Origin: a bacterium
Lineage (GTDB): Bacteria > Bacillota_I > Bacilli_A > RF39 > UBA660
Direction of reading: 5' to 3'
DNA length: 64,000 nucleotides
Assembly: GCA_019423565.1 (NCBI GenBank)
Contig: JAHZBE010000002.1
Span: forward strand, 83,692-147,691
Position 1 is the stretch's first letter, and the number at the start of each line of letters is the position of its first letter. Below the pieces are notes generated by a model that was given only the letters and a program-made list of their open reading frames with translations, did no database searches and was not told where the DNA came from. The translations under genes were made by a program, and so were the position numbers. This document shows, piece by piece, positions 8,232-32,647 of the stretch.

Positions 8232-8249
8232 ATTTTTACCTCTCTCAAA

Positions 8250-16683: not shown

Positions 16684-16750
16684 ATTTTCACCAGTCCACT
16701 ATATAATATGAAAAAAATTATTTACTCGTCACTATAATAGCCTAATACAA

Positions 16751-16836
16751 AAAAATGCACAAAATATTCAAAATATTGTGCATTTTCACTTTTTTTAAAC
16801 CCTATTTTGCACAATCATTGTGCATTTTTTATTCTT
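16751..16836. repeat. Direct repeat copy 1 (3' flank of fic): imperfect 27-bp palindrome + perfect 17-bp palindrome + stop codon
   Basis: 16756-16782 is TGCACAAAATATTCAAAATATTGTGCA. 16808-16824 is TGCACAATCATTGTGCA, followed by TTTT and the stop. It aligns without gaps to 17949-18034 at an offset of 1198 bp, with about 14 mismatches in 86 positions by eye. Confidence 0.85.
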
Positions 16837-17911
16837 TTCCCACAAATACATTATATATTTCACTATATCGATATGCAAGTTTAGCATAATTATCATCAAT
16901 TTCTAATATACCTATTTTTACAAGTTCATCAATTAAAGTCGAAACTGTATTTCTTGATACACCAGATTCTTCCTCTATTTCTTTTTTTGTAAATACAATT
17001 TGATGGATTAATGATGGCATAATTCTATAAACCGCATTACTATTTAGTGTTTTAATTTTTTGCATATCTTTATTATATATTTCTTTAATCCTATTTATTT
17101 TAGCAATATAATTATTACACTGTTCAATAACACATTGTAAAAAGAATTTAATAAATCCAGACATATTACCCTTTCTGCTTTCATTTAAATATTTATGATA
17201 ACTTGGTTTATATAGTTCAATTACTTCTGATAAGAAAAGTATTGGTTTGTCATCCGTTAGCATTGCAAGTTGTATTGGAATAAGAGCTCTACCTAATCTT
17301 CCATTTCCATCTCTATATGCATGTATCGTTTCAAACTGTGAATGAGAAATAGCCATATTTACAAATATTGGATCAATAAACTCATCATTCATATATTTAA
17401 ATAAATTATCTAAAAGAAGCGGAACATCCTCTGGAATAGGTGGAACATAGATGGCTTCTTTAATTGTACAACCTCTTGGACCAATCCAATTTTGAATATT
17501 TCTGATTTTTCCAGGTTCTTTATTTTGACCTCTAACGCTATCTAGTAATATTTTATGAATACTATTTACAAAAACTAAATCTATTTTTTTATTTTTTTTA
17601 ATATAATTTTCAGAATATTCAATTACTTCTTTTAAATTTTGTATCTCACTTTTTTCATCATTATTTGGCATATATTTTATATAATACATATCATCCTGAG
17701 AAATTTGTGTACCCTCAATTTGCGTAGATTTTAAACTTTCACTTAAAATGATTGAATCTAAAAAATATTTTGAATCAAAATCAATGTTTTTTAAATATGT
17801 TTTATACTCTCCATATTTTTCATTTGCTTCAGACAATAATTTTAATAATTCTTTATCAATTTTATATTCAATTGGTAACTCTTTTACTTTAATTGGTTCC
17901 ATTTCCATCAC
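16829..17911 (-). CDS. fic: Fic-family protein (AMPylase-type) with autoinhibitory helix and C-terminal winged-HTH
   Basis: 360 aa. Canonical Fic motif HAYRDGNGRLGR (encoded about 17290-17325). N-terminal inhibitory motif S-T-Q-I-E-G, matching [S/T]xxxE[G/N]. C-terminal HTH-like segment (SGVSRNTVSTLIDELVKIGILE). The true start may be the ATG at 17902. Confidence 0.85.
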   Translation of the reverse strand: MMEMEPIKVKELPIEYKIDKELLKLLSEANEKYGEYKTYLKNIDFDSKYFLDSIILSESLKSTQIEGTQISQDDMYYIKYMPNNDEKSEIQNLKEVIEYSENYIKKNKKIDLVFVNSIHKILLDSVRGQNKEPGKIRNIQNWIGPRGCTIKEAIYVPPIPEDVPLLLDNLFKYMNDEFIDPIFVNMAISHSQFETIHAYRDGNGRLGRALIPIQLAMLTDDKPILFLSEVIELYKPSYHKYLNESRKGNMSGFIKFFLQCVIEQCNNYIAKINRIKEIYNKDMQKIKTLNSNAVYRIMPSLIHQIVFTKKEIEEESGVSRNTVSTLIDELVKIGILEIDDNYAKLAYRYSEIYNVFVGKE

Positions 17912-17948
17912 CTACAGTGATATTAACATTTTTTTCTTCAAAAGTAAA

Positions 17949-18034
17949 GAAAATGCACAATATTTGCGATATTTTGTGCATTTTTACCTTTTTTAGACAT
18001 TGTTTTGCACAATGATTGTGCATTTTTTATTCTT
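17949..18034. repeat. Direct repeat copy 2 (between the virD4-like stop and the fic start)
   Basis: 17954-17980 is TGCACAATATTTGCGATATTTTGTGCA. 18006-18022 is TGCACAATGATTGTGCA, followed by TTTT and the stop. Internal spacing (25 nt) is the same as in copy 1. Confidence 0.85.
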
Positions 18035-20258
18035 CAAAGAAGAAATCATCAAAGAAGTCATCATAATCTGTATTACTTGTATTTTCTCCATTAGATGTTT
18101 CTTCTTGTTTAATATCCTTTTTATTATCTTCAACTTTAACTTCTTCTTTTGAATTTTCCTGTGGTTCTTCCTTCATCTTAAAATTATTAAAATCAACCAT
18201 ATTACTATGAACAACTTCATCAATTTTTGGATCTTTTGAAATTGTTTTTGTATCAAATAATTTTTCATCCGAATTATTAAATATATTATTCTGTATAGTT
18301 GTTTCTTTAGATTCTTCAATTTTGTTTTTTTCTGTTTCTTGTTTCTTCTTTTCTTCCTCTTCTTCTTTTTCAAGTTCTGCTATTTTAGCATCTATTTCTT
18401 TTATCATTTTATCAATGTCCATATCAGGACTCATACCTGGCATTCCTCCACCACCAAATGGATTCATACCGAATGGTGAACCTCCACCAATAGGTGAAGA
18501 ACTACCGTCCATACCAGCATTTTTTAACTTTTCTTGTTTTTGTTTTCTAACAAATTCTTTCAAATCAAATGTTTTAATCTCATCCATAGTTCTTTGTGGA
18601 TAAACAACATTTTTTCCATAGTGATCTGTACCTCTACCAAAACCGAAGTCTGTATCCCAATCCATCTTTAATTTGCCTCTAAATGGCGCACATCTTTGTT
18701 TAATTAATATGATTTCATCAGGCTTCATTCTTTGAAGTTCTGATACAGTTACAAGAGGTCTTGTTTCCTCCTTTTTATCCTTACCAACTCTAACAAGTTT
18801 ATCACCACATAATTTACTAATTTCTTCCAAAGCTGATAATTCACCTGTTAATAAGTATATTAGGTTACCACAGTTACCACGAATAGTTTCTGCATCATGA
18901 TCACCATAATTTTGTTTTAACTGGGCAAAGTTCTGGATAATAAATGTAAATCTTATTTGTCTTGAACGAGCTGCAGTAACCATTGTTGTAATATCTTTAA
19001 ACTTAGGCATGTTAGCAAACTCATCAAGTAAGAAGTTTGTTCTTACTGGAAGTTTTCCACCATGTTGTTGTGCAACATTTATTAATGCTTCATAACATTG
19101 TTTAACAAATATAGTAGCAAGTGAATGGTATGTTGTTTTTTCATCTTGTATAATCATAAATACCGCTGTTGGTTTTTCACCTATACTATCCATATCAAAA
19201 TCACTCTTAGAAAGCATTTCTGATAAGTTTTTAGTAACAGCTAGTGTTTTAACCTTATCCTTTAATACAGATACGATACCACCCTTTGTTTCATTTGGTG
19301 CATTAACTGTACCTAAAGCATTTACACATGCTGGCGAAGCTGGATCTTTTGCATTAAAATATTCTTTTAAATAATTTGATGCACCGTACTTATCTTCACC
19401 AGTTGTCATCATCAAATTAATACTATTTATATTTATTTCTTCTTCCGGAGCATCTTCAAATAACGCAAGTGATAAACCTGTTAAATAACTTGCAGCTGAA
19501 TTTTGCCAGAATGGATCATTTCCTTGACCATCAACAACTATATTAAGTGATAAGTCATTTAAAAGTTCATTTGCTTTATCAAAATTTCCTTCTTTTTGAT
19601 ATTTATATGGTAAATGATATGGATTCCAGCAATTACCTTTTTGTGGATCACGGAAATTAAGTATTATAATTTGATATCCAAGTTCTCTCATTATTCCAGA
19701 ATTATCGTTATATATTTCACCTTTAGGGTCAGATATAATCATTGATTCTCTACCTTTTATAAGCATTTGAACAGTTGGATTAATTATACCTTGAGTTTTA
19801 CCTGAACCAGTCGCACCAATAACAAGTGTATGACTTTCACCATTATCTACATAAGCAGCTTCTTTATCATATACTAAAGGTGTACCACCTGCTTTTGCTT
19901 CTTTTTCAACATATGGAACTCTTACAACACCTTTAGCAGATTTAATCTCCTTATCTTTAGCCCATCTAGCATAACCATCTTCTTTTTTCTCACTAGTATA
20001 ACCAAAGCCTTTCTCTCTAGTAAAGAAATATGATGATGTTGTACCAAATAAAAAACCTATAGTAGCAATCCATAAAATCAGAGTTACACCTATATATCTT
20101 GGTGTAAATGCGTAAAATGGATTTAATCCCCATGGTGTACCTTCATCTAATAAGGATGAAAAGTTAAGTATACAAACACATATTAAATATAAGATAAATA
20201 TTGATACCACTGCAAACGCAATTACATCTTTTTTTTCAGCTCTAAACTTAAGTTTCAT
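18027..20258 (-). CDS. virD4: VirD4/TraG-type type IV coupling protein
   Basis: 743 aa. Two N-terminal TM helices, Walker A VIGATGSGKTQG, Walker B-like FLLDEFANM. Long low-complexity C-terminal tail (G/P/M-rich, then E/K-rich, ending DYDDFFDDFFFEE). Confidence 0.85.
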   Translation of the reverse strand: MKLKFRAEKKDVIAFAVVSIFILYLICVCILNFSSLLDEGTPWGLNPFYAFTPRYIGVTLILWIATIGFLFGTTSSYFFTREKGFGYTSEKKEDGYARWAKDKEIKSAKGVVRVPYVEKEAKAGGTPLVYDKEAAYVDNGESHTLVIGATGSGKTQGIINPTVQMLIKGRESMIISDPKGEIYNDNSGIMRELGYQIIILNFRDPQKGNCWNPYHLPYKYQKEGNFDKANELLNDLSLNIVVDGQGNDPFWQNSAASYLTGLSLALFEDAPEEEININSINLMMTTGEDKYGASNYLKEYFNAKDPASPACVNALGTVNAPNETKGGIVSVLKDKVKTLAVTKNLSEMLSKSDFDMDSIGEKPTAVFMIIQDEKTTYHSLATIFVKQCYEALINVAQQHGGKLPVRTNFLLDEFANMPKFKDITTMVTAARSRQIRFTFIIQNFAQLKQNYGDHDAETIRGNCGNLIYLLTGELSALEEISKLCGDKLVRVGKDKKEETRPLVTVSELQRMKPDEIILIKQRCAPFRGKLKMDWDTDFGFGRGTDHYGKNVVYPQRTMDEIKTFDLKEFVRKQKQEKLKNAGMDGSSSPIGGGSPFGMNPFGGGGMPGMSPDMDIDKMIKEIDAKIAELEKEEEEEKKKQETEKNKIEESKETTIQNNIFNNSDEKLFDTKTISKDPKIDEVVHSNMVDFNNFKMKEEPQENSKEEVKVEDNKKDIKQEETSNGENTSNTDYDDFFDDFFFEE

Positions 20259-20296
20259 CTAATCCACTTCTCCCTTTTAAATCTATTTATATTATA

Positions 20297-20326
20297 ACAA
20301 AAAAAAAGGTATTTTTAAATACCTTT
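20297..20326 (-). terminator. Rho-independent terminator between the hydrolase and virD4-like genes
   Basis: 8-bp stem AAAGGTAT/ATACCTTT (20305-20312 / 20319-20326) plus a T-run on the minus strand, 5 nt after the stop at 20332. An extended -10 TGtTATAAT (20291-20299) follows immediately and could drive virD4. Confidence 0.7.
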
Positions 20327-20331
20327 AATAA

Positions 20332-23148
20332 TTATTTTGCATATGTATTGTATATTCTTTGAGCGTTTGCTGTTCTGTTTCTTATTTCTTTATTACAATC
20401 TGTTTGTTGATTTCTACAATGTGTTCTACCACCATATTCATATACAATAAGAAATTCTGATGCAGCTTTTGATACATCATCTGTAGATTTTAAAAGTTTG
20501 TATAATTCTTTATATTCACCACCTGGACTAATTCCATGCGTTTCAGGTTCTTTCATTGATATATCCAAAAACAATAATTGAGTCTCAAGATCAGCGACAT
20601 ATTCTTTTCCTTTAAAATCATATAATGCTTCTTTTAGTGTACACCAAGTAAATCCAGCAATTCCAAATCCACCATCACCAGGTGCATAATTTGTACAACT
20701 AGTTCCAACCAATGTACCAGTAAATTTTTCTTTTGATATTTCACCTGAAGCAACTTTTTTAGCGTATTCTGTATTTAAATGGTCCTCATCACCATTAACT
20801 ATATCAGGATAATATGTCGATTCTTGGAAAAAGTTTCCCATCATTCCTGCTGCACCTGCTTTAGTATATCCTAGAGATAATAAATAATTCCATATATCCG
20901 GTTCTGCTTCTGGACCAACTCTTTTAAGTGAACCTGTTAATGCACCACAAGGAATAAATAAATTTGTTGGATCAATTGCAGTTCCATTTGAATCCTGTAA
21001 TGCATCCATAAATGTAAAATGCAATCCTTCCGTATTATATTCACTTGAATCTATAGATGCAATTGCATCACCCTTATTAACCGTAAGCCCCTCTTTCAAA
21101 GTAGATATTGGCTTAACATTTGAATATATTGTTATAAATTTATATTCTTTTTCATTTATAGTTACATCATGACTTATTTTTACAGATTTTCCACAAGTAT
21201 TCTCGCCACATTTAGCATCAGTAATTGATTCAACTTTACCTTTAGCAACAGAATAAACACTATCACCTGCTTTAACACCTGCAGTAGTTTCATTCAAATC
21301 TACACCATTATGATTTTTACCATTAACTATACCATATGAATAATTTGTATCAAAATTAACAGTAGTTCCATCAGGTATATTTACCGGTTTACCTAATTCA
21401 GACACTAGTGCACTATCTATTGCTCCAACACAAGTTTCAGAATATTCTTCACTAGAACCACTTGTATTCCTTAAAAATATATCTCTAAATAAACCTTCAT
21501 TAGCTACAATATCTTTATATAACATTTCTTTCTTTTGTTCTAAAGCATCATCAGTTAATCCACCTATATAATTATGAAATTCAGGCATATTCATAAAATA
21601 ATAATTCATTAAATAATTCTTATAATTATCTTCATCAAATACATATGTATCATAATAAGTAACTGTAATTTTTAAGCCACTTCTATCAACTGACACTATA
21701 TCATATATTCCATAAAATAAATCTCCTACTAAACTAGCCAGAGAGGAAACAAAATCTTCTGCAACTAATCCTTCGTTTTCAAAAAATGAACCAGAATATT
21801 CAGATCCCAATAATAAAGCCGTTAACTCTTTAAATGGTGCAGTAATAACACCCCATGAAGCACCCAAAATATCTGTTAATACATCTGACGTATCACTGGC
21901 AATCAATTTAGCATTATTTTTTATAAAATCGAGTAATGAAACAGTTATTGGAGTACCAGATCTTGTCGCATTTCCAAAAAAATCTGTACTAAACTGATTC
22001 CTTGCAAGTTTCCTTAATCTATATATCTTACCAGTATTATAAACAAGTCCATCAGAATCAACAGTTTGTTGTGCCTCATCAAATTTATCTCTCATCCATT
22101 CTTTTGCTCCCTGAAAATATCCTGAATTTGAAGATTGGCTATTCATAGAATTATCCACAGCACTTTCGTCCTCAATATTTTGATATTTAGTATCATATCC
22201 AGCACCCTCTGTATAAAAAAGTGTTGAAAGAAGAAGAGGAACATTTAATCCTTCACCATTATTGTTATTATCACAACCATACCTATCACATAAATCATCA
22301 ATTTCGTCATAAAACGCTTCCTTTGAATCTTGAAAACCAAAACCGCTATAAAAGTTTGATAACTTTTCACTAAAATTGGCTACTCCAGTTATAGCTTCAT
22401 CAATATTTCCCCAAACTTCCATTAAAGGTCCAAGAATTAATTCAACAACAAAAAGAATTAATAATGGTCCAAGTGCTAGCAAAACTAGAAAAAGAGCTAA
22501 TCTCATTTTCATTTTCTTTATAAATGCACTTGAAATCATAGCTAAAGCATCGCTAGGGTGAGTTGCAGCATACGCTTTTGATTTTAAATGATCCTTTTTA
22601 ATATTTCTAAGATTTTTTTTGTCTTGTTTAAGTTTGTTTTTTTCGTCATTTAATTTGTTTTTAGCTTCTTTATCTTCTTTTTTTGCAGAATCCAAATTAT
22701 TCTTATCATCTAAATTTCTTTGACTCGTAGAAACCATTCTATTATCGTTTCTTACTTTTTTTAATCTTTCTGCACTTTGGTCTTTATTATTACTTGCCTT
22801 TTTTATATTTTCTTTAGTATCATTAATTCTATCCTGTGCATCTTTTTTTAAATTATTGTAATGATTTTTATCATTTAATCCTTTTTTAAAAGCTTCTCGA
22901 CCACTACTTGCCTTATTATATTTTCCATTTTTTACGTCGTCTATCTTTTTTTCATCATTATCCGTAGTTCCGCTTATCTGTTCACTTTCACTGTTTTCAA
23001 TATTTGATGATATAGAAGATGTATCAGCTTTTTTTTCATCATTTTCTGTAATACCATTTACAGACTCATTTTCACTATTTTCATTGGTTGATGAAACGGA
23101 AGATGAATCATCATTTCCAACTTCTTTAAAATCTTCTTCATTTTCCAT
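20332..23148 (-). CDS. T4SS-associated bifunctional cell-wall hydrolase (M23 peptidase + lysozyme-like domain)
   Basis: 938 aa. Charged N-terminus with a duplicated about 25-aa S/N/E-rich unit and one TM (LALFLVLLALGPLLILFVV). M23 motifs (GKNHNGVDL ... GLHFTF). The C-terminal IWNYLLSLGYTKAGAAGMMGNFFQES...GFGIAGFTW resembles the phage-tail-lysozyme type domain. Confidence 0.75.
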   Translation of the reverse strand: MENEEDFKEVGNDDSSSVSSTNENSENESVNGITENDEKKADTSSISSNIENSESEQISGTTDNDEKKIDDVKNGKYNKASSGREAFKKGLNDKNHYNNLKKDAQDRINDTKENIKKASNNKDQSAERLKKVRNDNRMVSTSQRNLDDKNNLDSAKKEDKEAKNKLNDEKNKLKQDKKNLRNIKKDHLKSKAYAATHPSDALAMISSAFIKKMKMRLALFLVLLALGPLLILFVVELILGPLMEVWGNIDEAITGVANFSEKLSNFYSGFGFQDSKEAFYDEIDDLCDRYGCDNNNNGEGLNVPLLLSTLFYTEGAGYDTKYQNIEDESAVDNSMNSQSSNSGYFQGAKEWMRDKFDEAQQTVDSDGLVYNTGKIYRLRKLARNQFSTDFFGNATRSGTPITVSLLDFIKNNAKLIASDTSDVLTDILGASWGVITAPFKELTALLLGSEYSGSFFENEGLVAEDFVSSLASLVGDLFYGIYDIVSVDRSGLKITVTYYDTYVFDEDNYKNYLMNYYFMNMPEFHNYIGGLTDDALEQKKEMLYKDIVANEGLFRDIFLRNTSGSSEEYSETCVGAIDSALVSELGKPVNIPDGTTVNFDTNYSYGIVNGKNHNGVDLNETTAGVKAGDSVYSVAKGKVESITDAKCGENTCGKSVKISHDVTINEKEYKFITIYSNVKPISTLKEGLTVNKGDAIASIDSSEYNTEGLHFTFMDALQDSNGTAIDPTNLFIPCGALTGSLKRVGPEAEPDIWNYLLSLGYTKAGAAGMMGNFFQESTYYPDIVNGDEDHLNTEYAKKVASGEISKEKFTGTLVGTSCTNYAPGDGGFGIAGFTWCTLKEALYDFKGKEYVADLETQLLFLDISMKEPETHGISPGGEYKELYKLLKSTDDVSKAASEFLIVYEYGGRTHCRNQQTDCNKEIRNRTANAQRIYNTYAK

Positions 23149-23182
23149 TTTATCACCACCTTTTACTTCAAATATTTATATA

Positions 23183-24973
23183 TTATAATCCGCCTCTTGT
23201 ACCAAACGAATCAAGTTCTGCATCTGTTGCTATTACACTTATTTGCATACGTTTACTACCACATACAAATAATGCATCTCCTTGATTATATCTCTTAATA
23301 CCTTCTTTTTCATTATCATTTAAATCAATTAATTTTGATAAATCTTCAACAGCTTGCTTTTTAAGTCCCATAACAAGATAATATGAAGCATTATCAAATA
23401 TTGCTTTACCCTGCATTAATACATTTGGAGCAGCAAAGTCACTTGGTTGTTGTGTTATAATTATTGTTCCACTATTATATTTACGCGCTCTTCTTTGTAC
23501 TTGGGCTAAGAAATCTGCACCAAGCATATTATTATTTCCAAGTAAAATATGAGCTTCATCTACTTGTAATACTGTGTTTTGACTAGGATCAAGACATAAT
23601 CCCCAAGCATATTTTAATATATTAAAGAATAAGGCATTTTTTATATTTACTTCCGCATTTATTAATTCTCTAATATTGAATACAATAAAATTTGATTTTG
23701 GACTTATTGTAGTATGTCCATCAAAATAATGTTCAAGTCCACCAGAAATTAATGGTCTAACTTTTAATTCAAGTTTTTCCATTATATCTCTTTCCCTAGT
23801 AGCTTCACCATATGAAAGTATTCTTCCACGGATAGTTGTATAAACATCACTAAATGTAGGAAAATCTTCACTTGTTAATGTTGTAAAGTCAGTTTTAACG
23901 TTAATATTAAATCTTTGATATGTTTCAACAACAACCTCATTAAATAATGTTAATACATCCTCTTCAATTGATGGATCATAATATTTCATAAATGCTTTTA
24001 AAGTTTGAAGAGTCTTAGCTAAAACCGCATAACCAAGTCCTCTTGACGATTCTTCTTCGTCAGCATCTGGAACTATTTCAAGTGGATTAATCATACCAAA
24101 TTCTCCACCACGTCCTAAATCTATAAAGTCACCATTATAAAGTCTCGCCATTGGTTCAAGTTCACCTTCTGGATCTATTGCAATTATTTTATAACCATTT
24201 CTTACATGTGATCTCAAAAGTAATTTAGCTGCAGTTGATTTACCTGATCCAGAAGTACCAAGAATAATCATATTAGCATTATTTCTATTATGTTCTTTTT
24301 TTATTTGATATAAGAATTGATTAAATAAAATTATACCACCAGAAAAATCTACACCAAGTAAGCAAGATAATCCCTGATCCTTAATACTATCAAATACAAA
24401 AGGATACATAGCCGCAAGTGTTGGTGATGGAATTGGTGTTCCAATTCTATCTTCAATATCTTGCTTACCAAATATAGGTAAACATGATTTTAATACTTTT
24501 TCCTGTTCAAATCTAAGAGGAATAGCTCTCATTTCCATGGCTTCTAATGTTGATTTTAAAGATACCTTTGTTCTTTCAAGTTCTTCCTTCGTATCAGCTG
24601 TAATCATTATATGCATCTGAAAATCAAATACCTTTGATTGATTTGTAGTAATAACTTTAATAAATGATTCAAGTGATTCATAATCTTGTCTTATTCTTTC
24701 TTGATATGTTACATCTGGTTCTTTTTGATACTTATCGTATAAATCTACTAATTGTTTATTTAGCATTTTAGAAACAACTTCAAATGCAACAGGTATATGT
24801 TTAATAACTATTTTTACTCCCGCCATACCAGAAGTTAAGCTTGATAAATAACCCGCTGTAATATATTTTGGATATGATAAAACAGTAAGTATAGTTGCAA
24901 ACTTATCGCTAACAATAAAATCTGATGTATTAAATGTTAATCCCTTTGGAGCAAGTTCAGTTTTAATCCCCAT
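23183..24973 (-). CDS. virB4: VirB4-like conjugal transfer ATPase, ATPase body
   Basis: 596 aa. Walker A ILGTSGSGKSTAAK, Walker B VLQVDEAH. Confidence 0.85.
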   Translation of the reverse strand: MGIKTELAPKGLTFNTSDFIVSDKFATILTVLSYPKYITAGYLSSLTSGMAGVKIVIKHIPVAFEVVSKMLNKQLVDLYDKYQKEPDVTYQERIRQDYESLESFIKVITTNQSKVFDFQMHIMITADTKEELERTKVSLKSTLEAMEMRAIPLRFEQEKVLKSCLPIFGKQDIEDRIGTPIPSPTLAAMYPFVFDSIKDQGLSCLLGVDFSGGIILFNQFLYQIKKEHNRNNANMIILGTSGSGKSTAAKLLLRSHVRNGYKIIAIDPEGELEPMARLYNGDFIDLGRGGEFGMINPLEIVPDADEEESSRGLGYAVLAKTLQTLKAFMKYYDPSIEEDVLTLFNEVVVETYQRFNINVKTDFTTLTSEDFPTFSDVYTTIRGRILSYGEATRERDIMEKLELKVRPLISGGLEHYFDGHTTISPKSNFIVFNIRELINAEVNIKNALFFNILKYAWGLCLDPSQNTVLQVDEAHILLGNNNMLGADFLAQVQRRARKYNSGTIIITQQPSDFAAPNVLMQGKAIFDNASYYLVMGLKKQAVEDLSKLIDLNDNEKEGIKRYNQGDALFVCGSKRMQISVIATDAELDSFGTRGGL

Positions 24974-25514
24974 TATTGATCACCGTCCCACTTTCATATT
25001 TAACACCACCATTTAAGAAATTATCTATAATCATTCTTAAATCATCATTAGATGTTTGTGATGCAATTAAACCACAATTAGCAAGTTCACTAATTAAACT
25101 TCTAATTCTCTTTTGTATTACATCATTATCTTTCGATTTAAACAAAATGAAATACTCAGTATCCACTATACCATTATTAACAAATAATTCAGCCTTCGCA
25201 ATATCATCTGATAGTAATTTTCTATATATAGGACTCTGTGCATCATTTAACTGAAGTTGAAGTTGTGATACATATAAATTTATATCAACAGGCCTATCAG
25301 CTATAATAAGCCAAAATTCATAATCAATCAAATTATAAAAAGTTCTAAAAGATTCTATTATTTGATCTCTATAATTTTCTTCAAGTATAAAAATATTTCT
25401 AGGTTGTACTTTTACACCCGTAACCATTTCTTTATTATCAAGTAAAATAACATTATTATTAATATCCTTAACAGGAATCCACTTTTCAGTATATATACTA
25501 CTATTTGTACTCAT
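24963..25514 (-). CDS. virB4: VirB4 N-terminal domain encoded as a separate overlapping ORF (probable frameshift)
   Basis: The 183-aa ORF (WIPVKDINNNVILLDNKEMVTGVKVQPRNIFIL...) resembles the N-terminal domain that is fused to the ATPase in Gram-positive VirB4 homologues such as Tn916 ORF16, as I recall it. The overlap falls in the C4 run 24968-24971. One base fewer fuses the two as ...VINNG-IKTELAPKG... Confidence 0.65.
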   Translation of the reverse strand: MSTNSSIYTEKWIPVKDINNNVILLDNKEMVTGVKVQPRNIFILEENYRDQIIESFRTFYNLIDYEFWLIIADRPVDINLYVSQLQLQLNDAQSPIYRKLLSDDIAKAELFVNNGIVDTEYFILFKSKDNDVIQKRIRSLISELANCGLIASQTSNDDLRMIIDNFLNGGVKYESGTVINNGD

Positions 25515-25806
25515 TCTTATAACACCAACCTTCCCATTTATAATTTCTCCTTCCGTAAAAGAAATCTATTATCTCTCTTATTAACGTTAATATATTATGA
25601 TAATTTGGTATTGGAACAACTAAAAATCCTGTAACTAGTAATGGTATTAAACATATTAATGAGAGATTGAAAGTAGTAGGAGCAATTATCAAAAGTAATA
25701 ATACAGATAAAACTACTCCACTACCAAATAAAATTAAATCAAATTTCGTAAATAATCCAAATATTAACGTACCTTTTTTGGCATTTGCAGGTATTAAATA
25801 ATTCAC
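25501..25806 (-). CDS. PrgI/VirB3-like small two-TM T4SS protein
   Basis: 101 aa with two hydrophobic helices, positioned immediately upstream of virB4 as in Gram-positive conjugation modules. Confidence 0.6.
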   Translation of the reverse strand: MNYLIPANAKKGTLIFGLFTKFDLILFGSGVVLSVLLLLIIAPTTFNLSLICLIPLLVTGFLVVPIPNYHNILTLIREIIDFFYGRRNYKWEGWCYKNEYK

Positions 25807-25824
25807 TATGTATCACACTCCCTT

Positions 25825-27885
25825 TTATTTGACATTTTCTTTATTAACTTCATTTCCAACTTTAACATATGCTTTCATTCTTGTCTTATCATTTTCTCCC
25901 ATCTTATCAAGCATAGCATTATATGCTGACTCCGCTGTTGAGAAAGCAATGTTAGCATCATTAATTTCGTCGGCAATTTCTTGTTTAGACTTTGTCATAC
26001 CTTTATCTGCGAAATCAACCGAATACTGAATCAATCTTTGAGCTGTATCAGTTAATCCACCACTATCTGTAACAAAGGATGAAATACCACTATTTGATAA
26101 ATTGGACATCAATTGTTTTGTATTAATTTGTCCTGAATCAAAATTAGTTTGCATTTCCAATATTTTTTGTTTTTCATCATTCGAACTTGCAGCTTTCATT
26201 GCATTATTCAATATTTCCCCTACAGAATTATAACTATTCTGTGCATTTTCAGCCTGTAACAACTTAAATTTCTTTTCCATATAACTATTTGCTGTTGCCT
26301 TTTGATTCTTTTTAAATGGAGATTTATCCATAATCGATTTTGATTGAACACCTTGTGCAATTTTTTTATCTATATTTCCTTCTGCATCATATAAATTACC
26401 TTTAACACTGTTTGCAATAGCTTGTGCTTCTGCTTTAGCCTTATCCTTAAGCTTATTAATTTTATTTTGTTCTTTTTCATATTGTCTAGTTGGATTAGCA
26501 TTTTCGTTCCACGTTTTAATTGCATCCTTCGTACCTGCAATTCCATTTGTAGATCTGAAGAATGCACCTGCTGTTTTTGTTAATCTACCTGGTGTTCTAT
26601 CTTTCCAAGCACCTTTTCCTCGGAATCCTTTATTCCAACCATAAGCACCAAATCCTCCAACTAGTCCTGCACCTAGTGCAACTGGCCAATGAGATAACGC
26701 AGCTGCTCCTAATAATCCTGCACCTGCACCAACTTCTCCAACTTTTTTTACAGCTCCCCAAGCTTTTTGTGCCTGTTTTCCAACTGCGGCCATTTCTCCA
26801 AGTCTTCCACCAATACCACCTTTAAGTTTGATATCAGTACCAAATACTTTATTTATCAAATCTGGTAATTGTTTAACAAATATAAGCATTCCAACAATTA
26901 AAAATGCTTTTAAAACAAAACTCCAATCTTCACCTTGAAATGGTTTTAAAAATGATGATAAATTTGATATTAAAAACAAGTAAAAAGCAATACATGCTAT
27001 TCTTATAAATAAATCCATATAAGTTTTTACTAATTCTTGAAACCAAGATGATAAAATTTTATCACCAGCTGCTATATAACCAACAATAGATATAGGCGCA
27101 GTTAATTCCATAAATGCAAGTTTAAATACTCTTACTGCAACATCCATAGAATAAATTACAAGTATATATACACACCCAAGACCACATACAATTGCAAGTA
27201 ATCCATTAAAGTCAAAAGCATATTTTGTATCAGCACCTGCAATCCAACCAGCATTTTCATTATCTGTCGTCGTATTAATATGTTCAGCAAAATTTCCAAT
27301 ATGTTTAATATCTTCGGCAATCATCGCGTTGTAAGATTCTTGAACATCCTCATCAACTTGAATCGTTCCATCATCAACAGGAACAACTACTGATGAAATT
27401 AATGTACCCGCAATAACTTGACCGCCATTACCACCAGATTTACACTTTTCTTCTGCATTTTCTGTTGCTTCGTCACCCTCAACACCACCATCAACTTGAC
27501 AACTTATACCCGTTCCAACAATTATCTTTTCTATCAAACTATTATCCATTATATTTGCTTGTACTGCGTACAAAATATCAAATAATAACGGAACAGCAAC
27601 CATCATAACTAATGCCAAAATAGATCTTTTAAATAATGCCGTTACGCCTTTCTTGTTATCACCTAATAAATCTGGATTTACAATCGCAGATAAAATAACA
27701 ACTGAAAAAGCAAATAGCATTACCACACTTACTAACACATAAATATTAGAAGAAAATTGACTAATAATTTCTGAATCTAAAAATCTTGTGTTAGCTAAAT
27801 TATAAAAAATATAGTATATATACTTTATCAATCTATAAATTGGAATACATATATATATAGCTAGCTTTCTTAATAATGCACTCAT
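25825..27885 (-). CDS. VirB6/TrbL-like polytopic T4SS channel protein
   Basis: 686 aa. Multiple TM helices in the N-terminal two-thirds, a Gly-rich segment (GGIGGRLGEMAAVGK...GAGAGLLGAAAL) and a hydrophilic K/N/Q-rich C-terminal third. Confidence 0.65.
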   Translation of the reverse strand: MSALLRKLAIYICIPIYRLIKYIYYIFYNLANTRFLDSEIISQFSSNIYVLVSVVMLFAFSVVILSAIVNPDLLGDNKKGVTALFKRSILALVMMVAVPLLFDILYAVQANIMDNSLIEKIIVGTGISCQVDGGVEGDEATENAEEKCKSGGNGGQVIAGTLISSVVVPVDDGTIQVDEDVQESYNAMIAEDIKHIGNFAEHINTTTDNENAGWIAGADTKYAFDFNGLLAIVCGLGCVYILVIYSMDVAVRVFKLAFMELTAPISIVGYIAAGDKILSSWFQELVKTYMDLFIRIACIAFYLFLISNLSSFLKPFQGEDWSFVLKAFLIVGMLIFVKQLPDLINKVFGTDIKLKGGIGGRLGEMAAVGKQAQKAWGAVKKVGEVGAGAGLLGAAALSHWPVALGAGLVGGFGAYGWNKGFRGKGAWKDRTPGRLTKTAGAFFRSTNGIAGTKDAIKTWNENANPTRQYEKEQNKINKLKDKAKAEAQAIANSVKGNLYDAEGNIDKKIAQGVQSKSIMDKSPFKKNQKATANSYMEKKFKLLQAENAQNSYNSVGEILNNAMKAASSNDEKQKILEMQTNFDSGQINTKQLMSNLSNSGISSFVTDSGGLTDTAQRLIQYSVDFADKGMTKSKQEIADEINDANIAFSTAESAYNAMLDKMGENDKTRMKAYVKVGNEVNKENVK

Positions 27886-27901
27886 TTCTTACCTCCTATT
27901 C

Positions 27902-29401
27902 TCATTCCCCATTTATAATACAATCCATCAAGCTATAATCACCACCAAATATACTTAATAATAAGCTTATAATTAGTGGTATAGTAATGAACAATATAAG
28001 TAATATCAATCTTTTTGGGAAATTCTTCTTTGATTTATTCATTTTTTCTACATCCGATGCAATTACAGCTTTTGCATAGTCTAAAGTTCCAAAAAATATT
28101 ACAGCAACTGGAGCTAAAATTCTAAGTACCACATAAAACCAGTGGAAAAAACTAACATCATCACATGTAAGTTCATAATGTTTATCAAAATTAATATCTA
28201 AAGTGGGGGCAGAAATACCTGAAAAATTTTTCCATAACTTTTCCTTATTATCCTCTAATTCCTTTTCAAGTTCTTCCTCATTTCTTTCTGCTTGTTTTTT
28301 ATATTGTTCTAAGCACTTGTTTTTTTCTGCATCTTGCGGTATTGAATAGCAATATTTACAATGATTAAAAGCATCGGAACTTCTACAGAATTTTTCCGCA
28401 TCTCCGTTTTCATTTTTACAATAATAATTACAAATAGGTATTTTTTCTTCTCCATCATCTTTATTGTTATCATCATACTTATCTTTTTTATCTTCAATTT
28501 TTTTAACATCAACTAGACTTTCTAAAAATGAAACGCAATTTTCATAATCAGTATTATCATCTAAACTATGATAAATTTTTTTATAAAACCACAGTAAATA
28601 TTCTGGATCATACTCAAGCATTACATATGAAGTAATGGTATACCAATTCATATAACGAACACGTAATAAACCAGCATAACTAGGATCAACATTTTCATCT
28701 TCTAATCCATAATTTTTTGTTGTTTTAGTTACATCACTTTCAACATTTTTTTTCGTCTGTTGATAATATTCTAGAGCTATGCCGCCTTCAGAATACTTAA
28801 TATCACAAGCTGCTAATTTTGCTTTTACGTCATTTTCACTCCCGTTAGAAACGAGTTCATTATAAACATCATGCTTATATTGAAATGTAGGATCATCTTT
28901 TTCTAAATTTTCTTTAAACATATACAGTTGTACACCTGCTTTAATAGATTTTTTTAAATCAATATAATATCCTTCATCCTCATTTGCACTAGATAATGGA
29001 TTGTAAATTAAATTGCCATTATAAAAAACCTCAGAATTTTTATTTGTCCTTTTCGCTTCAAATCCCGAACCTATGCCGTCATAATATACAATTATAAAAC
29101 TAGGACATCCATTATTCTTTACTTCAGATTCAAAACTTAAAGAAGAAAAAGATAAACCTGTTGGTGATGTAAATTTCATATTATAATCTAAAAAATTTTT
29201 AGAATAATCAAGTCTAATAGCAATGCCTTCATAAACAGCAGCTGTTCCAGTACCGGTACCAGCTCCGTATAATACCTTACCATCACGAACAGGTTCGGAA
29301 TACGTATAGTATTTACAATTTGCCTCAACTTTTTTATTAACAAACGTTGATATAAATACTATAAAAAATATTACTAAAATATTTAAAATTTTTCTTTTCA
29401 T
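27902..29401 (-). CDS. Secreted Cys-rich protein with C-terminal pilin-like (VirB2-like) two-TM module
   Basis: 499 aa with a signal peptide and a Cys-rich central region (CNYYCKNENGDAEKFCRSSDAFNHCKYCYS). The C-terminal about 95 aa (about 27902-28190), LRILAPVAVIFFGTLDYAKAVIASDVEKMNKSKKNFPKRLILLILFITIPLI, is paralogous to the 135-aa protein. Confidence 0.6.
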   Translation of the reverse strand: MKRKILNILVIFFIVFISTFVNKKVEANCKYYTYSEPVRDGKVLYGAGTGTGTAAVYEGIAIRLDYSKNFLDYNMKFTSPTGLSFSSLSFESEVKNNGCPSFIIVYYDGIGSGFEAKRTNKNSEVFYNGNLIYNPLSSANEDEGYYIDLKKSIKAGVQLYMFKENLEKDDPTFQYKHDVYNELVSNGSENDVKAKLAACDIKYSEGGIALEYYQQTKKNVESDVTKTTKNYGLEDENVDPSYAGLLRVRYMNWYTITSYVMLEYDPEYLLWFYKKIYHSLDDNTDYENCVSFLESLVDVKKIEDKKDKYDDNNKDDGEEKIPICNYYCKNENGDAEKFCRSSDAFNHCKYCYSIPQDAEKNKCLEQYKKQAERNEEELEKELEDNKEKLWKNFSGISAPTLDINFDKHYELTCDDVSFFHWFYVVLRILAPVAVIFFGTLDYAKAVIASDVEKMNKSKKNFPKRLILLILFITIPLIISLLLSIFGGDYSLMDCIINGE

Positions 29402-29440
29402 AAGTAAACCTACTTTCTCACTATAATAATAACATAAATT

Positions 29441-29467
29441 AAAAAAAAAAGAAACATATATTTTCTT
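29441..29467 (-). terminator. Intra-cluster terminator/attenuator immediately after the pilin-like gene
   Basis: On the minus strand: AAAGAAA-atatatg-TTTCTTT followed by an 8-T run, 3 nt after the stop at 29470. Confidence 0.55.
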
Positions 29468-29469
29468 TT

Positions 29470-29877
29470 TTATTTATCATATCTATCGCTTTGGTCCAAC
29501 TTAGGCCCATGAGTAGCTGCATCCCAGCATGCTGCAAAATTACTTTTTGGTGCCGCAAAAGTTATTACCGCTTCAACTATTGTTGGTATTAAGAATACTA
29601 TAACTGCTGCAATTATTCTCTTTACAAAAGGTTTTTGAGCTTCTTTAATTTTCTTCTCATCACCAGCTATAACAGCTTTTCCCATATCTAATGTTCCAAA
29701 TAAAATCAATCCAAAAGGTACAGCTATTCTTAATATTCTTATAGCTAATTTTACTAAATATAGAATACCAAGAATTGTTTCTGTTGGATCCTCACCGTTT
29801 CCTGTAGCAAAACTACATTCACCATCTAAAAAATCCAAAACATTTAATAAGTTCAACATAATTAATCCTCCTAACAT
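29470..29877 (-). CDS. VirB2/TrbC-like pilin-like small membrane protein
   Basis: 135 aa. Hydrophobic leader and two TM helices around LRIAVPFGLILFGTLDMGKAVIAGDEKKIKEAQKPFVKRIIAAVIVFLIPTIV. AGGAGG RBS at 29867-29872. First gene of the T4SS cluster. Confidence 0.55.
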   Translation of the reverse strand: MLGGLIMLNLLNVLDFLDGECSFATGNGEDPTETILGILYLVKLAIRILRIAVPFGLILFGTLDMGKAVIAGDEKKIKEAQKPFVKRIIAAVIVFLIPTIVEAVITFAAPKSNFAACWDAATHGPKLDQSDRYDK

Positions 29878-29890
29878 TTCTTATAAACTT

Positions 29891-29940
29891 ATTTTATAAT
29901 TATTAACATAAATTGTCAATAATTAATGAAAAATTTATGT
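29891..29940 (-). promoter_or_regulatory. Sigma-A-type promoter of the T4SS cluster, embedded in a 9-bp inverted repeat
   Basis: On the minus strand: TTGACA (29914-29919), 17 nt, TAAAAT (29891-29896). The inverted repeat ACATAAATT/AATTTATGT (29906-29914 / 29932-29940) brackets the -35. Confidence 0.55.
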
Positions 29941-29962: not shown

Positions 29963-32647
29963 TTACTTTATTATTTCATCAAGAATATTTCTTATTTTAT
30001 CTTCTTCATTTGATCCATTTGTTTTTAATCTTACTAGTGGTATACCACATTTTTTTAAAATATTATTCTTTTTTTGATCTCTAATTTTTTGTATTTCTTT
30101 ATTATGAAATTTATAACTATCTACTTCAACTGCTAAAACAGGAGTTTTATCAAATTTATTATATATTAAAAGATCAATATGTGAATTTGTATGAATAAAT
30201 TTAATTTCTTCATCATTTAATATTTCCTCATCTTTTACTATTTTTATGAGTGGATAATGATTATTTAATACATCATAAACATTATATTTTTCTTTTTTTA
30301 ATATTTTCTTTAACATGTAATATGTAACATTCTCTGAATTAAAATTGAATATTTTAGGGTATTTACCTAAAAATTCTTCTAATTTTGTTTTATTTACTTT
30401 ATATAAAAGATCATAAATAGAATTTATATTACTTTGTATTTCTTCAAAATTATTATAATTTATATATTTTATTAAACTTGATATATTTGAATTATCATTT
30501 GACTTATATTCATATGGCGTTACTAAATATAATTTATTTACTGCTCTTGATATTGCAACATTAATTGAATTTGGATTATCTAAAAAACTATCTATATCAT
30601 TTGCGACAGTACTAAATATTATTAAATCTTTTTCACTACCTTGAAATCCATGTACAGTATCTATTTGAACATTTTTACAATCAATTCTATCAATCAGATA
30701 TTCTTTCTGTGGTCTATATGGTGTTACTAAACCAATAGAATCTTTATATATATTTATATTTTCATTTGGAATTAATTCATTTATAATTACATCTGCTTGT
30801 CTTTCATTATACCAACTTGTATTCTTTTTTCTAGCATGATTACCTTTTACACATTTATATCTTTTAATTGGTGACTCAACAGTATTCTTAGTTAATATTA
30901 TTAGTTCATTATTATAAAACATTTTATTACAAAATTCTATTATTTTAGGATGACACCTATAATGTTCTCTCAATATCGTTATTGGCATATTATCATATAT
31001 CTTTTTAGTTAAATCAAGCAAATTATTTTCCGTATAATTATATTTTTTATCTATTTCGTATTTATTAAATATATTATTATATTCATTTACTTTTTTTGAA
31101 TTCACTATATTGGGTAATTGCTTAGAATCACCTACTATAACAACATTTTTAGCGGAAGATAGAGCCAAAAATGCAGATGCTAAATCAACTTGTGAAGATT
31201 CATCTATTATTATATAATCAAATACATATCCACTAGAGATAGAGTTTAATAATGAATATGTTGTACTTAAAATAATTGGATAATCCTTTATTAATTTATT
31301 TGTATTTTTTACAGTTGTATTATTATATATATTTTTATTATTGTAATTTTCATAAACATAATTTTTAAAATATTTCATTGACAACTTTGTATAATTATCA
31401 AATTTATCTTCTAAATCAAATTTTGAAATAAAATTTTCTTTTTCTTTTATAATTCCATCTAACTCTTTTATCTTTTTTTCATAGTATAACTTTTCTATAT
31501 TTTCTAATATATCCTTTATTTTGTTATTATAAAGTTCTGGATTAAAAAATTTATATTTAATTTGTGATATAACTTGAACTTTTTTATTAAAATATTCTGT
31601 CATATTTTCCTGTTTATTCAAATAAAGAAAAAATTGATGAAGTCTTTCTGTTGATAGATTAGGCAACTTTATTTCTTGTATATTTGATATATTTTTATCA
31701 TAATGTTCATACTCTAGTTTTAATTCATATAGTTCTTGATTAAGTATAGCAATATCATTTTTATACTCTAAATATAAATCAATATCTTTTTTCATTATGT
31801 GTAAATCATTTATAATTTCTTCTTTTTTTCCATTATCAATATACCAAGAATTAGGATATGGTTTTATTTCAATTTGACTTTCAATAAATTTATCTATATT
31901 AGAAACTCTCCCTAATCTTGCACATAATGAAGATAAACCATTTTTTTCTAATTTTTCATACACATTTTTAGTCGCAGCATTATTATTTGAAACAACTGCA
32001 ACTGTTTTTTCATTAAGAATTATATTAGATAACATATTTAATATAGTTTGTGTTTTCCCTGTTCCTGGAGGTCCTTCTATAACACTTATTTTATTAGAAA
32101 GTGCATTTTCAAGTGCTTTTTCTTGACTAGAATTAAAACTAAATGGAAATATAATATTATTATCGCTAAAATCCATATCAGAAATAAATTCTTTTTCCCC
32201 TGAAATATAATTTTTCAAAACAGATTCTTCACTTATAAAAGTTAATTTTTCATATGCTTTTTTTAATATCTTATCATTTTTACCTCTTAATTCCTCATCA
32301 TGTTTTATATCATCTACAGTAATAGCATTTGATAATTCTTTAAAATAATCAAATATTTGTTTATTCTCTCTAGAGTTCAATAAAGTTTTTTCTATTTTTA
32401 TATTTTCTTTTTTATATATTTTACTTGTCCCATTTTCAAAAAATATTTTAATATATTCTTTAAAATCAAGAGCTTTTTTTACATGTGTTAAGGCTCTTGT
32501 AGTTACAAATCTATCTCCTGTTATATCAATTGGATCCTTATATATTATTAATTTATTTAAATCATAATCATCTATATTTTCAATAACTTTTTTAGTAATA
32601 TCTTTTTTCCACGAATCTAAAAACAAATATTTTTCTTCAAAATTCAT
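29963..32647 (-). CDS. SF1B (Upf1/DNA2-like) helicase fused to a C-terminal DUF2726-like nuclease-fold domain
   Basis: Walker A IEGPPGTGKTQT, Walker B IIIDESSQV, then VIVGDSKQLP, LREHYRCHPKIIEFCN, VHGFQGSEKD, NVAISRAVNKLYLV. C-terminal HIDLLIYNKFDKTPVLAVEVDSYKFHNKEIQKIRDQKKNNILKKCGIPLVRL. I prefer the ATG at 32647 (MNFEEKY...) because the track TTG at 32662 lies only 4 nt from the predicted TSS. Confidence 0.8.
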   Translation of the reverse strand: MNFEEKYLFLDSWKKDITKKVIENIDDYDLNKLIIYKDPIDITGDRFVTTRALTHVKKALDFKEYIKIFFENGTSKIYKKENIKIEKTLLNSRENKQIFDYFKELSNAITVDDIKHDEELRGKNDKILKKAYEKLTFISEESVLKNYISGEKEFISDMDFSDNNIIFPFSFNSSQEKALENALSNKISVIEGPPGTGKTQTILNMLSNIILNEKTVAVVSNNNAATKNVYEKLEKNGLSSLCARLGRVSNIDKFIESQIEIKPYPNSWYIDNGKKEEIINDLHIMKKDIDLYLEYKNDIAILNQELYELKLEYEHYDKNISNIQEIKLPNLSTERLHQFFLYLNKQENMTEYFNKKVQVISQIKYKFFNPELYNNKIKDILENIEKLYYEKKIKELDGIIKEKENFISKFDLEDKFDNYTKLSMKYFKNYVYENYNNKNIYNNTTVKNTNKLIKDYPIILSTTYSLLNSISSGYVFDYIIIDESSQVDLASAFLALSSAKNVVIVGDSKQLPNIVNSKKVNEYNNIFNKYEIDKKYNYTENNLLDLTKKIYDNMPITILREHYRCHPKIIEFCNKMFYNNELIILTKNTVESPIKRYKCVKGNHARKKNTSWYNERQADVIINELIPNENINIYKDSIGLVTPYRPQKEYLIDRIDCKNVQIDTVHGFQGSEKDLIIFSTVANDIDSFLDNPNSINVAISRAVNKLYLVTPYEYKSNDNSNISSLIKYINYNNFEEIQSNINSIYDLLYKVNKTKLEEFLGKYPKIFNFNSENVTYYMLKKILKKEKYNVYDVLNNHYPLIKIVKDEEILNDEEIKFIHTNSHIDLLIYNKFDKTPVLAVEVDSYKFHNKEIQKIRDQKKNNILKKCGIPLVRLKTNGSNEEDKIRNILDEIIK

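Follow-up and report, generated by a model that had tools for sequence, protein, structure and literature searches.

Here, we describe a type IV secretion system (T4SS) encoded in a 64-kb window (the whole stretch of DNA that was analyzed, positions 83,692 to 147,691 of contig JAHZBE010000002.1) from a bacterium of RF39. RF39 is a gut lineage of the class Bacilli for which no isolates were available as of 2022 (PMC9606305), and in GTDB it is an order that includes CAG-433 (PMC8035907), the family of the window. We found that the T4SS genes form an intact operon that is conserved across this lineage and evolves under purifying selection, and that no mobility gene accompanies them in the DNA searched. 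On the basis of these results, the RF39 T4SS is probably a conjugation-derived monoderm machine that has lost its relaxase and integration functions and is now inherited vertically as a host operon, serving contact-dependent interaction with neighboring cells. The window also carries core functions of the host, including the spore proteins GerQ and CotF, ribosomal proteins, NrdDG and Mur ligases.

The T4SS block consists of eight intact, tightly packed and co-oriented open reading frames (ORFs) at 18027-29877 on the reverse strand (Table 1). A first-pass annotation, made from the sequence alone, had counted nine; their co-orientation was borne out, but the correct number is eight. The parts it had named (pilin, 499-aa protein, VirB6, VirB3, VirB4, hydrolase and VirD4) were all recovered by Pfam, NCBIfam or similarity evidence, and the topologies predicted from hydropathy agreed with expectation. 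Thus, the block contains parts expected of a monoderm (MPF_FATA-type) T4SS: VirB4, VirD4 and VirB6 plus a VirB3/PrgI-like protein, together with a dedicated peptidoglycan hydrolase. The VirB3-like and TrsD-like genes overlap by 14 nt, and the TrsD-like gene and virB4 by 11 nt. The products of these three genes matched three parts of NF045975, a model of the 894-aa fused VirB4 of integrative and conjugative elements (ICEs) of mycoplasmas, and therefore represent a split trio here. The match was weak for the 101-aa VirB3-like protein (E 0.009, to the VirB3-like N-terminus of the model) and clear for the 183-aa TrsD-like protein (E 2e-14, positions 99-282), which is also assigned to PF26593 TraC-like in precomputed Pfam data; VirB4 scored 363 bits against NF045975 and 175 bits against NF045971. 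A weak precomputed match to PF26592 PrgI_like was present for a strain allele of the 101-aa protein (81% identical, locus L172), and the VirB3-like protein was found in 79 of 80 related loci. VirB4 contains a Walker A motif (GTSGSGKS) and P-loop_TraG, AAA_10 and DUF87 domains, and its closest solved structure is 4AG5 (E 9e-55). VirB6, with about 5-6 transmembrane (TM) helices by hydropathy, scored 29.7 bits against PF19597 TrbL_4 (cut-off, 27 bits) and matched the NCBIfam models Mbov_0396, MMCAP2_0566 and pLS20_p028.

To define the distribution of the system, VirB4 relatives were collected from a sample of one genome per species, and the best 80 were used for detailed analysis of their loci. 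Such a relative was found in at least 585 genomes of RF39-type gut Bacilli, counted at the species level. The best 80, each at least 71% identical to the VirB4 of the window, were almost all gut metagenome-assembled genomes (MAGs) labeled Tenericutes, Bacilli or Mollicutes, and they included Bacillales bacterium UBA660 as well as three chromosome-sized records of 1.19-1.54 Mb, two of them labeled chromosome. Identity to the window VirB4 in related loci ranged from 69 to 93%. The order of genes was recurrent: pilin(s), pilin fusion, VirB6, VirB3-like, TrsD-like, VirB4, a variable muralytic block, VirD4, rhodanese, (VTT) and RmuC. In an independent sample anchored on rmuC, which contributed a fourth chromosome-sized record (a 1.20-Mb circular contig), the T4SS was located directly upstream of rmuC in 33 of the 66 loci with sufficient upstream sequence, and in at least three of the other genomes it lay elsewhere. 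Thus, the position of the operon is often, although not always, conserved. All RF39 VirB4s fell into a single 50%-identity cluster among 1.84 billion representative proteins. The next full-length relatives outside this cluster were 44% and 41% identical (P0002 and P0003, respectively; neither had a match in the species-genome collection), and the rest were at most 35% identical. The few names available at that distance, all from Bacillota, were Thomasclavelia ramosa, Solobacterium, a Mycoplasmatota plasmid and Clostridium. It should be noted that several contigs with RF39-type T4SS/rmuC genes are deposited under MAG labels of other taxa, namely Muribaculaceae, Sphaerochaetaceae, Vescimonas, Bacteroidaceae, Paludibacteraceae and Oscillospiraceae (loci L012, L023, L025, L049, L074, L075, L104, L117 and L144); these are probably mis-binned or mislabeled rather than products of horizontal transfer.

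Pairwise distances of VirB4 and RmuC were correlated (Mantel r 0.64, p <= 0.001, 56 taxa; r is slightly inflated because some genomes are present twice in this set), and VirB4 was not more divergent than RmuC (median distance 0.25 and 0.27, respectively). The ratio of nonsynonymous to synonymous divergence (dN/dS), computed against four close relatives, was 0.07-0.10 for VirB4 and 0.13-0.19 for VirD4; the TrsD-like and VirB3-like proteins gave 0.09-0.18 and 0.14-0.23, respectively. For the core genes in the flanks it was 0.03-0.2, a range shared with VirB4 and VirD4. In addition, the T4SS was present in all eight distinct metagenomic strain contexts that hold an identical rhodanese protein. 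The first-pass annotation had offered two explanations for the block, a domesticated T4SS or the stranded mating-pore half of an ICE, and had named synteny among relatives and inactivating mutations as evidence that would bear on the choice. Because the order and content of the operon are conserved in at least 585 species-level genomes, it diverges together with rmuC, all eight of its genes in the window are intact and under purifying selection, and it occurs in every strain context, the second explanation is effectively excluded, and we are confident that the block is domesticated and not the remnant of an ICE. The G+C content of the block (about 30%, compared with about 24% nearby) was also considered as a compositional sign of recent transfer; this was rejected since other conserved core segments of the window show similar values (0.28-0.29).

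A self-transmissible element would be recognized by a relaxase, an integrase or replication initiator, borders around the T4SS and a patchy presence. In the searched DNA we found none of these genes or borders, and the presence of the operon was not patchy. When every ORF of 90 aa or more in the 64-kb window was scanned with Pfam, no relaxase, recombinase or Rep domain came to light, as the first-pass annotation had reported, and no DDE transposase/recombinase domain. The annotation had also pointed to the DNA just outside the block as a place where such genes might be found; on the 149-kb metagenome scaffold that holds the window, the genes listed in the 10 kb past the window start were ABC transporters and ParA/ParB only, with no mobility gene. 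Neither a relaxase nor a DDE recombinase was seen in the total of 74 kb searched. There were no tRNA genes, Rfam matches or competence genes in the window. The MobP3 relaxase of plasmid pBMB64 (see below) had no tblastn match in the window or in 160 related loci, and no relaxase-like protein was present among the conserved neighbor clusters that were scanned or read, which consisted of membrane, secreted, Tad-like and muralytic proteins. The only repeats found were 88 bp long and bracket a Fic cassette, not the T4SS.

Divergence differs strongly between the parts of the machine. We compared the window with its closest species, labeled 'uncultured Tenericutes UMGS855' and 'Clostridium sp. CAG:433'. 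The flanks showed 89-97% nucleotide identity, virD4 87-89% and virB4 about 84%, whereas the genes for the hydrolase, VirB6, the 499-aa protein and the pilin were about 67% identical or unalignable, with protein identities of 33-54%. Synonymous divergence was saturated in these surface genes, compared with 0.13-0.34 in the flanks. Even between strains with 99.3% identical flanks, VirB6 was 48-49% and the hydrolase 75% identical, compared with 99.2-99.5% for VirB4. Thus, VirB6, the pilin proteins and the hydrolase are surface parts under diversification.

The small pilin is a protein with two TM helices by hydropathy that scored just above the cut-off of PF18895 T4SS_pilin (26.9 and 26.6 bits, respectively); its likely start is the ATG at 29859, located 7 nt downstream of AGGAGG, which corrects the listed start. 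Small pilins occur in 65 of the 80 loci in 1-4 copies each. The 499-aa protein encoded next to the pilin has a signal peptide and two C-terminal TM helices (hydropathy), and over residues 425-464 it shares 53% identity with the pilin (E 3e-11). Its AlphaFold model (pLDDT 76) comprises a beta-rich domain, a long Cys-containing helical bundle and a terminal helical hairpin that corresponds to the pilin module; no fold in the PDB matched this model at E <= 0.001. Only 51 homologues were detectable, none of them named or carrying a Pfam domain, and the nearest alleles were 73%, 71% and 61% identical. Large proteins ending in a pilin module are common in RF39: they were found in 64 of the 80 loci, and the module was C-terminal in 82 of 84 such proteins. 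We infer that the 499-aa protein is a variable ectodomain anchored by a pilin.

The peptidoglycan hydrolase has a modular structure. Its Peptidase_M23 and Phage_lysozyme2 domains are preceded by a basic N-terminal region, one TM helix (212-249) and a conserved central region, for which hhalign showed homology (probability 98.9) to glucosaminidase+CHAP proteins from other RF39 loci and the AlphaFold model was unusable (pLDDT 51). Throughout RF39, the membrane-anchored N-terminal part and the central region are common to the hydrolases and the catalytic modules are swapped: M23+lysozyme in the window, glucosaminidase+CHAP or C39-like+NlpC/P60 in other species. Instead of one 938-aa hydrolase, most RF39 species have five genes between virB4 and virD4 (for example, L024 11808-17297), which encode a C39-like+NlpC/P60 protein, an LppM-like lipoprotein, a small TM protein, a glucosaminidase+CHAP protein and a 222-aa protein. 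The window does contain an LppM-like gene (38186-38887), a distant paralogue located 8 kb from the T4SS. In most species (L014-L080), the T4SS pilins are also directly preceded by a co-oriented Tad-like pilus cluster, located about 4-10 kb upstream of virB4 (for example, L024 5-4858 and L050 529-1650), with genes for a T2SSE ATPase, two TadB/C-like membrane proteins, two 150-aa TM proteins and a TadZ-like 334-aa protein. None of these cluster genes has a homologue in the window. Judged from this gene content, the T4SS of the window lineage is a streamlined form of an RF39 system that in most species includes extra small membrane proteins and a Tad-like cluster.

VirD4 is a clear coupling protein (PF02534 T4SS-DNA_transf, 7.8e-60; NF045973 of the CD1115 family, 321 bits with a cut-off of 250 bits) with two N-terminal TM helices, a Walker A motif (GATGSGKT) and a low-complexity linker. 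It ends in the tail DYDDFFDDFFFEE (nt 18030-18068). Its RF39 orthologues likewise end in (T/S)DD(Q/E)FFDDFF plus acidic residues after a hypervariable low-complexity linker. C-terminal extensions of other coupling proteins dock partners, as in F TraD-TraM and DotL-adaptor interactions, and by analogy the conserved tail suggests a conserved cytoplasmic partner.

We then compared the RF39 system with known T4SSs. By analogy, its closest functional counterpart would be the T4SS of Patescibacteria, for example that of Southlakia epibionticum ML1. The Patescibacteria system is MPF_FATA-derived, relaxase-less, chromosomal and essential for epibiotic growth (PMC12102498; PMC12857230). Common to both are the MPF_FATA derivation, the lack of a relaxase (for RF39, in the DNA searched), chromosomal conservation, a largely uncultured lineage with reduced genomes, TrsD-like and PrgI/VirB3 proteins beside VirB4, VirB6, PF18895 VirB2-like pilins with divergent paralogues, and peptidase and lysozyme genes downstream of virB4. 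On the other hand, the RF39 hosts are bona fide Bacillota of the class Bacilli with predicted cell wall and spore formation, and their pilin modules, unlike those of Patescibacteria, are fused to large variable ectodomains. In addition, VirD4 is operon-linked and bears the DDxFFDDFF tail in RF39, whereas the coupling protein of Patescibacteria is usually encoded far from virB4 and is non-essential in ML1.

Among annotated mobile elements, the closest relative by sequence is the transfer region of the Bacillus thuringiensis conjugative plasmid pBMB64 (NZ_CP004872.1). This region encodes, in order, a MobP3 relaxase, VirD4 (CD1115 family), a 126-aa VirB2-like protein, TrbL, PrgI, a 227-aa TrsD-like protein and VirB4, and it shares with the window the core order of small VirB2-like protein, TrbL, PrgI, TrsD-like protein and VirB4. 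Identity to the window was 31% for the TrsD-like proteins (227 and 183 aa), 30% for VirB4 and 33% for VirD4. A Tad-like pilus cluster (CpaB, TadZ, TadA and TadB/C) lies further on in the plasmid, a pairing also seen in most RF39 loci, and the plasmid VirD4, TrsD-like protein, VirB4, TadA and CpaB all have homologues in RF39 loci. The two differ in that virD4 occupies the 5' end in pBMB64 and the 3' end in the window, the DDxFFDDFF tail is missing from the plasmid VirD4, and pBMB64, typed as conjugative, has its MobP3 relaxase immediately upstream of virD4, a gene without homologue in the RF39 loci searched. The ICE module of mycoplasmas (CDS5, CDS16 and CDS17), whose hosts are phylogenetically near, is a minimal monoderm T4SS without a recognized VirB8, and it provides the best NCBIfam match for the window VirB4 (NF045975). 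The VirB3-like and TrsD-like proteins of the window align to N-terminal parts of the fused mycoplasma VirB4, and VirB6 matches Mbov_0396; both scores stay below the equivalog cut-offs (363 vs 590 bits and 36 vs 70 bits, respectively), and the three genes that are separate in the window encode one fused protein in mycoplasma ICEs. These ICEs are mobile and carry a DDE recombinase, but neither pilins nor a VirB1-like hydrolase (PMC12857230). Finally, the Gram-positive T4SS of Streptococcus suis 89K has been proposed as an exporter of a protein effector, not of DNA (PMC12857230); it is encoded on a pathogenicity island instead of a lineage-wide chromosomal operon and has a VirB8-like component.

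What might such a machine do? By analogy with the proposals for the Patescibacteria T4SS, we favor a role in delivery or exchange of macromolecules that would support a dependent lifestyle, rather than self-transfer. For pilus formation, direction of transport, substrate and action on contacted cells, we infer the following scheme. By homology to characterized T4SS parts, VirB6, the VirB3/PrgI-like protein, the TrsD-like protein and VirB4 would build a membrane translocon, and the membrane-anchored M23+lysozyme enzyme would open the peptidoglycan. The abundant small VirB2-like pilin may polymerize into a surface filament, into which pilin-module fusions such as the 499-aa protein could insert and display variable ectodomains for target recognition. 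VirD4 would bind a cytoplasmic substrate or adaptor via its acidic-aromatic DDxFFDDFF tail and pass it to the channel.

Several observations weigh against a role in contact-dependent interaction by a fixed host operon. By sequence, the system is closest to conjugative systems, including pBMB64, Thomasclavelia and mycoplasma-ICE-type models, and the tight retention of VirD4 fits DNA transfer no less well than protein delivery. The search for a relaxase spans 74 kb, and one may be encoded elsewhere in the genome. Half of the loci anchored on rmuC lack an adjacent T4SS, so its location is less than strictly fixed. In L168, one of the strain contigs, virB4 appears to be frameshifted and no virD4 gene was called; by tblastn, VirD4 residues 1-730 of 743 align there with 95% identity. 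In addition, no VirB8-like component (NTF2-fold, TcpC/PrgL-type) matched Pfam or NCBIfam models in the operon of this lineage. The hydrolase family was unrelated by hhalign to the small TM proteins between virB4 and virD4 of other RF39 loci, and thus there is no evidence for a VirB8-like domain fused to the hydrolase.

A different explanation is that the operon encodes a conjugation apparatus, fixed in the chromosome, with which RF39 cells exchange DNA, acting either by relaxase-independent distributive transfer of the chromosome, as seen in mycoplasmas, or with relaxases or mobilizable elements located elsewhere. In its favor, the mycoplasma-ICE VirB4/VirB6 models and a conjugative coupling protein of the CD1115 type are the best NCBIfam matches, the closest relative among plasmids is conjugative, VirD4 is strictly retained with a conserved docking tail, and mycoplasma ICE T4SSs mediate chromosomal transfer (PMC6030558; PMC12857230). 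Moreover, the mosaic pattern of divergence at the locus implies frequent homologous recombination. However, the searches described above returned no relaxase or DDE recombinase in 74 kb and no MobP3 in 160 related loci, the conserved neighbor clusters that were examined included no relaxase-like protein, the known chromosomal transfer of mycoplasmas needs a mobile ICE and not a vertically fixed operon, and VirB2-like pilin arrays and swapped muralytic modules are foreign to known monoderm conjugation (PMC12857230). We therefore regard DNA exchange as a less probable explanation that nevertheless deserves serious attention.

DNA import or release, as in Helicobacter ComB uptake or Neisseria gonococcal genetic island (GGI) secretion, is improbable. 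Relaxase-less chromosomal T4SSs are known in such roles, in some classes of Patescibacteria the T4SS lies beside competence and recombination genes (PMC12102498), and the recombination-associated rmuC is a frequent neighbor in RF39. On the other hand, half of the loci do not have rmuC next to the T4SS, the window contains no competence genes, and ComB-type systems work without VirD4, which is present, conserved and operon-linked here. DNA secretion by the Neisseria GGI, in turn, requires a relaxase. Least credible of all is a stranded or decaying mating-pore half of an ICE, or an active ICE with unrecognizable integrase and relaxase, since the location of the nearest homologues on mobile elements, the variable cassettes and 88-bp repeats that flank the block and its raised G+C content are outweighed by the intact genes under purifying selection, the conserved order and co-divergence with rmuC, the occurrence in all strain contexts, the enclosure of the Fic cassette rather than the T4SS by the repeats and the similar G+C content of core segments.

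Returning to a host operon for contact with neighboring cells, a more specific version may be proposed tentatively, although we consider it rather doubtful at present: RF39 bacteria, a widespread gut order that is entirely uncultured, might live in obligate or facultative physical association with other gut cells, with the T4SS (plus the Tad-like pilus in most species) as contact organelle and conduit, a counterpart in Bacillota, and possibly an evolutionary relative, of the epibiont apparatus of Patescibacteria. Pilin-fused ectodomains and swappable muralytic modules would then set partner specificity and breach partner walls. Steps in the synthesis of peptidoglycan precursors are predicted to be missing in RF39 (PMC10868615), which makes a T4SS-linked muralytic battery intriguing, although this link is speculation; such an association might possibly serve to scavenge muropeptides, for which RF39 is predicted to have no de novo synthesis.

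The coordinates of the T4SS genes and of the putative regulatory sites around them are given in Table 1.

Table 1 Genes and putative regulatory sites of the RF39 T4SS operon (positions refer to the window)
Feature	Position	Strand	Remarks
VirB2-like T4SS pilin	29470..29877	-	135 aa as listed, 129 aa from probable start; PF18895
Pilin-fusion secreted protein	27902..29401	-	499 aa; C-terminal pilin module, residues 417-495
Extended VirB6/TrbL-like polytopic channel protein	25825..27885	-	686 aa; PF19597 TrbL_4 and NCBIfam models
VirB3/PrgI-like protein	25501..25806	-	101 aa, two TM helices; NF045975 positions 2-96
TrsD/TraC-like soluble protein	24963..25514	-	183 aa; NF045975 positions 99-282
VirB4 ATPase	23183..24973	-	596 aa; NF045975 positions 296-891
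Membrane-anchored peptidoglycan hydrolase (VirB1 analogue)	20332..23148	-	938 aa; M23 and lysozyme domains
VirD4-type coupling protein	18027..20258	-	743 aa; T4SS-DNA_transf, CD1115 family
Sigma-70-like promoter TTGACA-17-TAAAAT upstream of pilin gene	29891..29919	-	11/12 match
9-bp inverted repeat ACATAAATT / AATTTATGT	29906..29940	.	Read from sequence; arms flank and overlap -35 hexamer
Hairpin and U-run directly 3' of pilin stop codon	29441..29471	-	-5.1 kcal/mol, z -2.1
Hairpin and U-run, then extended -10 TGTTATAAT (20299-20291), before virD4	20291..20326	-	-7.3 kcal/mol, z -2.0
Two operon-end hairpins	17940..18026	-	-7.2 and -12.8 kcal/mol; second z -4.9

With regard to expression, the first-pass annotation had considered the cluster to be built for regulation. 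The promoter, the inverted repeat, both hairpins and the extended -10 (the latter, with its hairpin, in a gap of 74 bp upstream of virD4) do exist, but they are weak and individually unremarkable in DNA of 24% G+C, in which promoter-like matches occurred at chance density (82 found vs 80.5 expected). The promoter had also been placed inside the inverted repeat; the repeat is present, but one of its arms overlaps the -35 hexamer, around which it might possibly act as an operator. The two A/U-rich hairpins were assessed by folding, as an automatic terminator scan missed both, and the weak hairpin after the pilin gene may be a leaky terminator or attenuator. The operon-end hairpins belong to a unit of 88 bp, a second copy of which follows the Fic cassette.

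The genomic neighborhood was also examined. The core genes reported on both sides (rhodanese and rmuC; htrA and rpsI-rplM) are there, but the immediate neighbors of the T4SS are accessory defense-type cassettes. A SoFic-type Fic gene (16829-17911, reverse strand) lies between virD4 and the rhodanese gene, in a slot bounded by 88-bp direct repeats (16749-16836 and 17947-18034), each consisting of two hairpins; in other strains this slot is empty or holds an HTH_3 + SocA_Panacea pair. Fic was considered as a T4SS effector and rejected: its full-length match to the PADLOC SoFic anti-phage model (291 bits) and the variable slot indicate a defense cassette. On the other side, a superfamily 1 (SF1) helicase with a nuclease-like C-terminal DUF2726 domain (29963-32662) partially matches the Mokosh MkoA/MkoC and Hhe defense helicases. 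As the closest species (L001, L003 and L004) lack this gene, it is an insertion of this lineage or strain that separates htrA from the pilin promoter. Two Abi_2/AbiD-type abortive-infection genes are located at 33846-34781 and 45735-46742. Taken together, the SoFic, helicase and Abi genes make the surroundings of the T4SS look like a defense-gene hotspot.

Further away, the region 50775-61020 encodes two very large surface proteins (815 and 2594 aa) with cadherin-like beta-sandwich repeats; the larger has 19 repeats and a weak C-terminal dockerin-like match. The region of about 2750-10960 encodes a helix-turn-helix regulator, an FMN-reductase fragment, a major facilitator superfamily transporter, an HMA protein and an Ltp/PASTA lipoprotein. 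Two other strains, L163 and L166, lack this region between pdf and the MCRA gene, which marks it as a strain-variable island. A large serine recombinase occurs farther on the L163 contig, beyond ABC-transporter genes and outside the sequence of the window. In two complete chromosome records, the T4SS locus lies in the first 130 kb (L024, OZ007038.1 105,943-127,724 of 1.54 Mb; L033, OZ007022.1 78,231-100,012 of 1.52 Mb). The ParA/ParB genes are located about 5 kb beyond the window start, and GC skew did not switch sign within the window; some Patescibacteria T4SS loci have been reported close to the replication origin.

A full-text literature search found no published description linking RF39 to a T4SS. 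What is new is a co-opted monoderm T4SS in a new host lineage, with pilin-fused ectodomains, a linked VirD4 bearing an FFDDFF tail and modular hydrolases. According to a 2025 review, VirB2-like pilins are not found in Gram-positive T4SSs, with Patescibacteria as the sole exception, and nearly all known functions of Gram-positive T4SSs are limited to DNA transfer (PMC12857230). RF39, and apparently pBMB64, combine VirB2-like pilins with an MPF_FATA core within Bacillota, and RF39 and B. thuringiensis plasmids may inform the origin of the Patescibacteria system. Thus, an ordinary Bacillota lineage keeps a pilin-bearing T4SS, relaxase-less in the DNA searched, as a conserved chromosomal operon, which provides a second, independent case for asking what role co-opted monoderm T4SSs play. 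The VirD4 DDxFFDDFF tail, the pilin-fusion ectodomains and the modular hydrolases offer testable handles on this question, and dependence on contact with partner cells becomes a hypothesis for the resistance of RF39 to cultivation.

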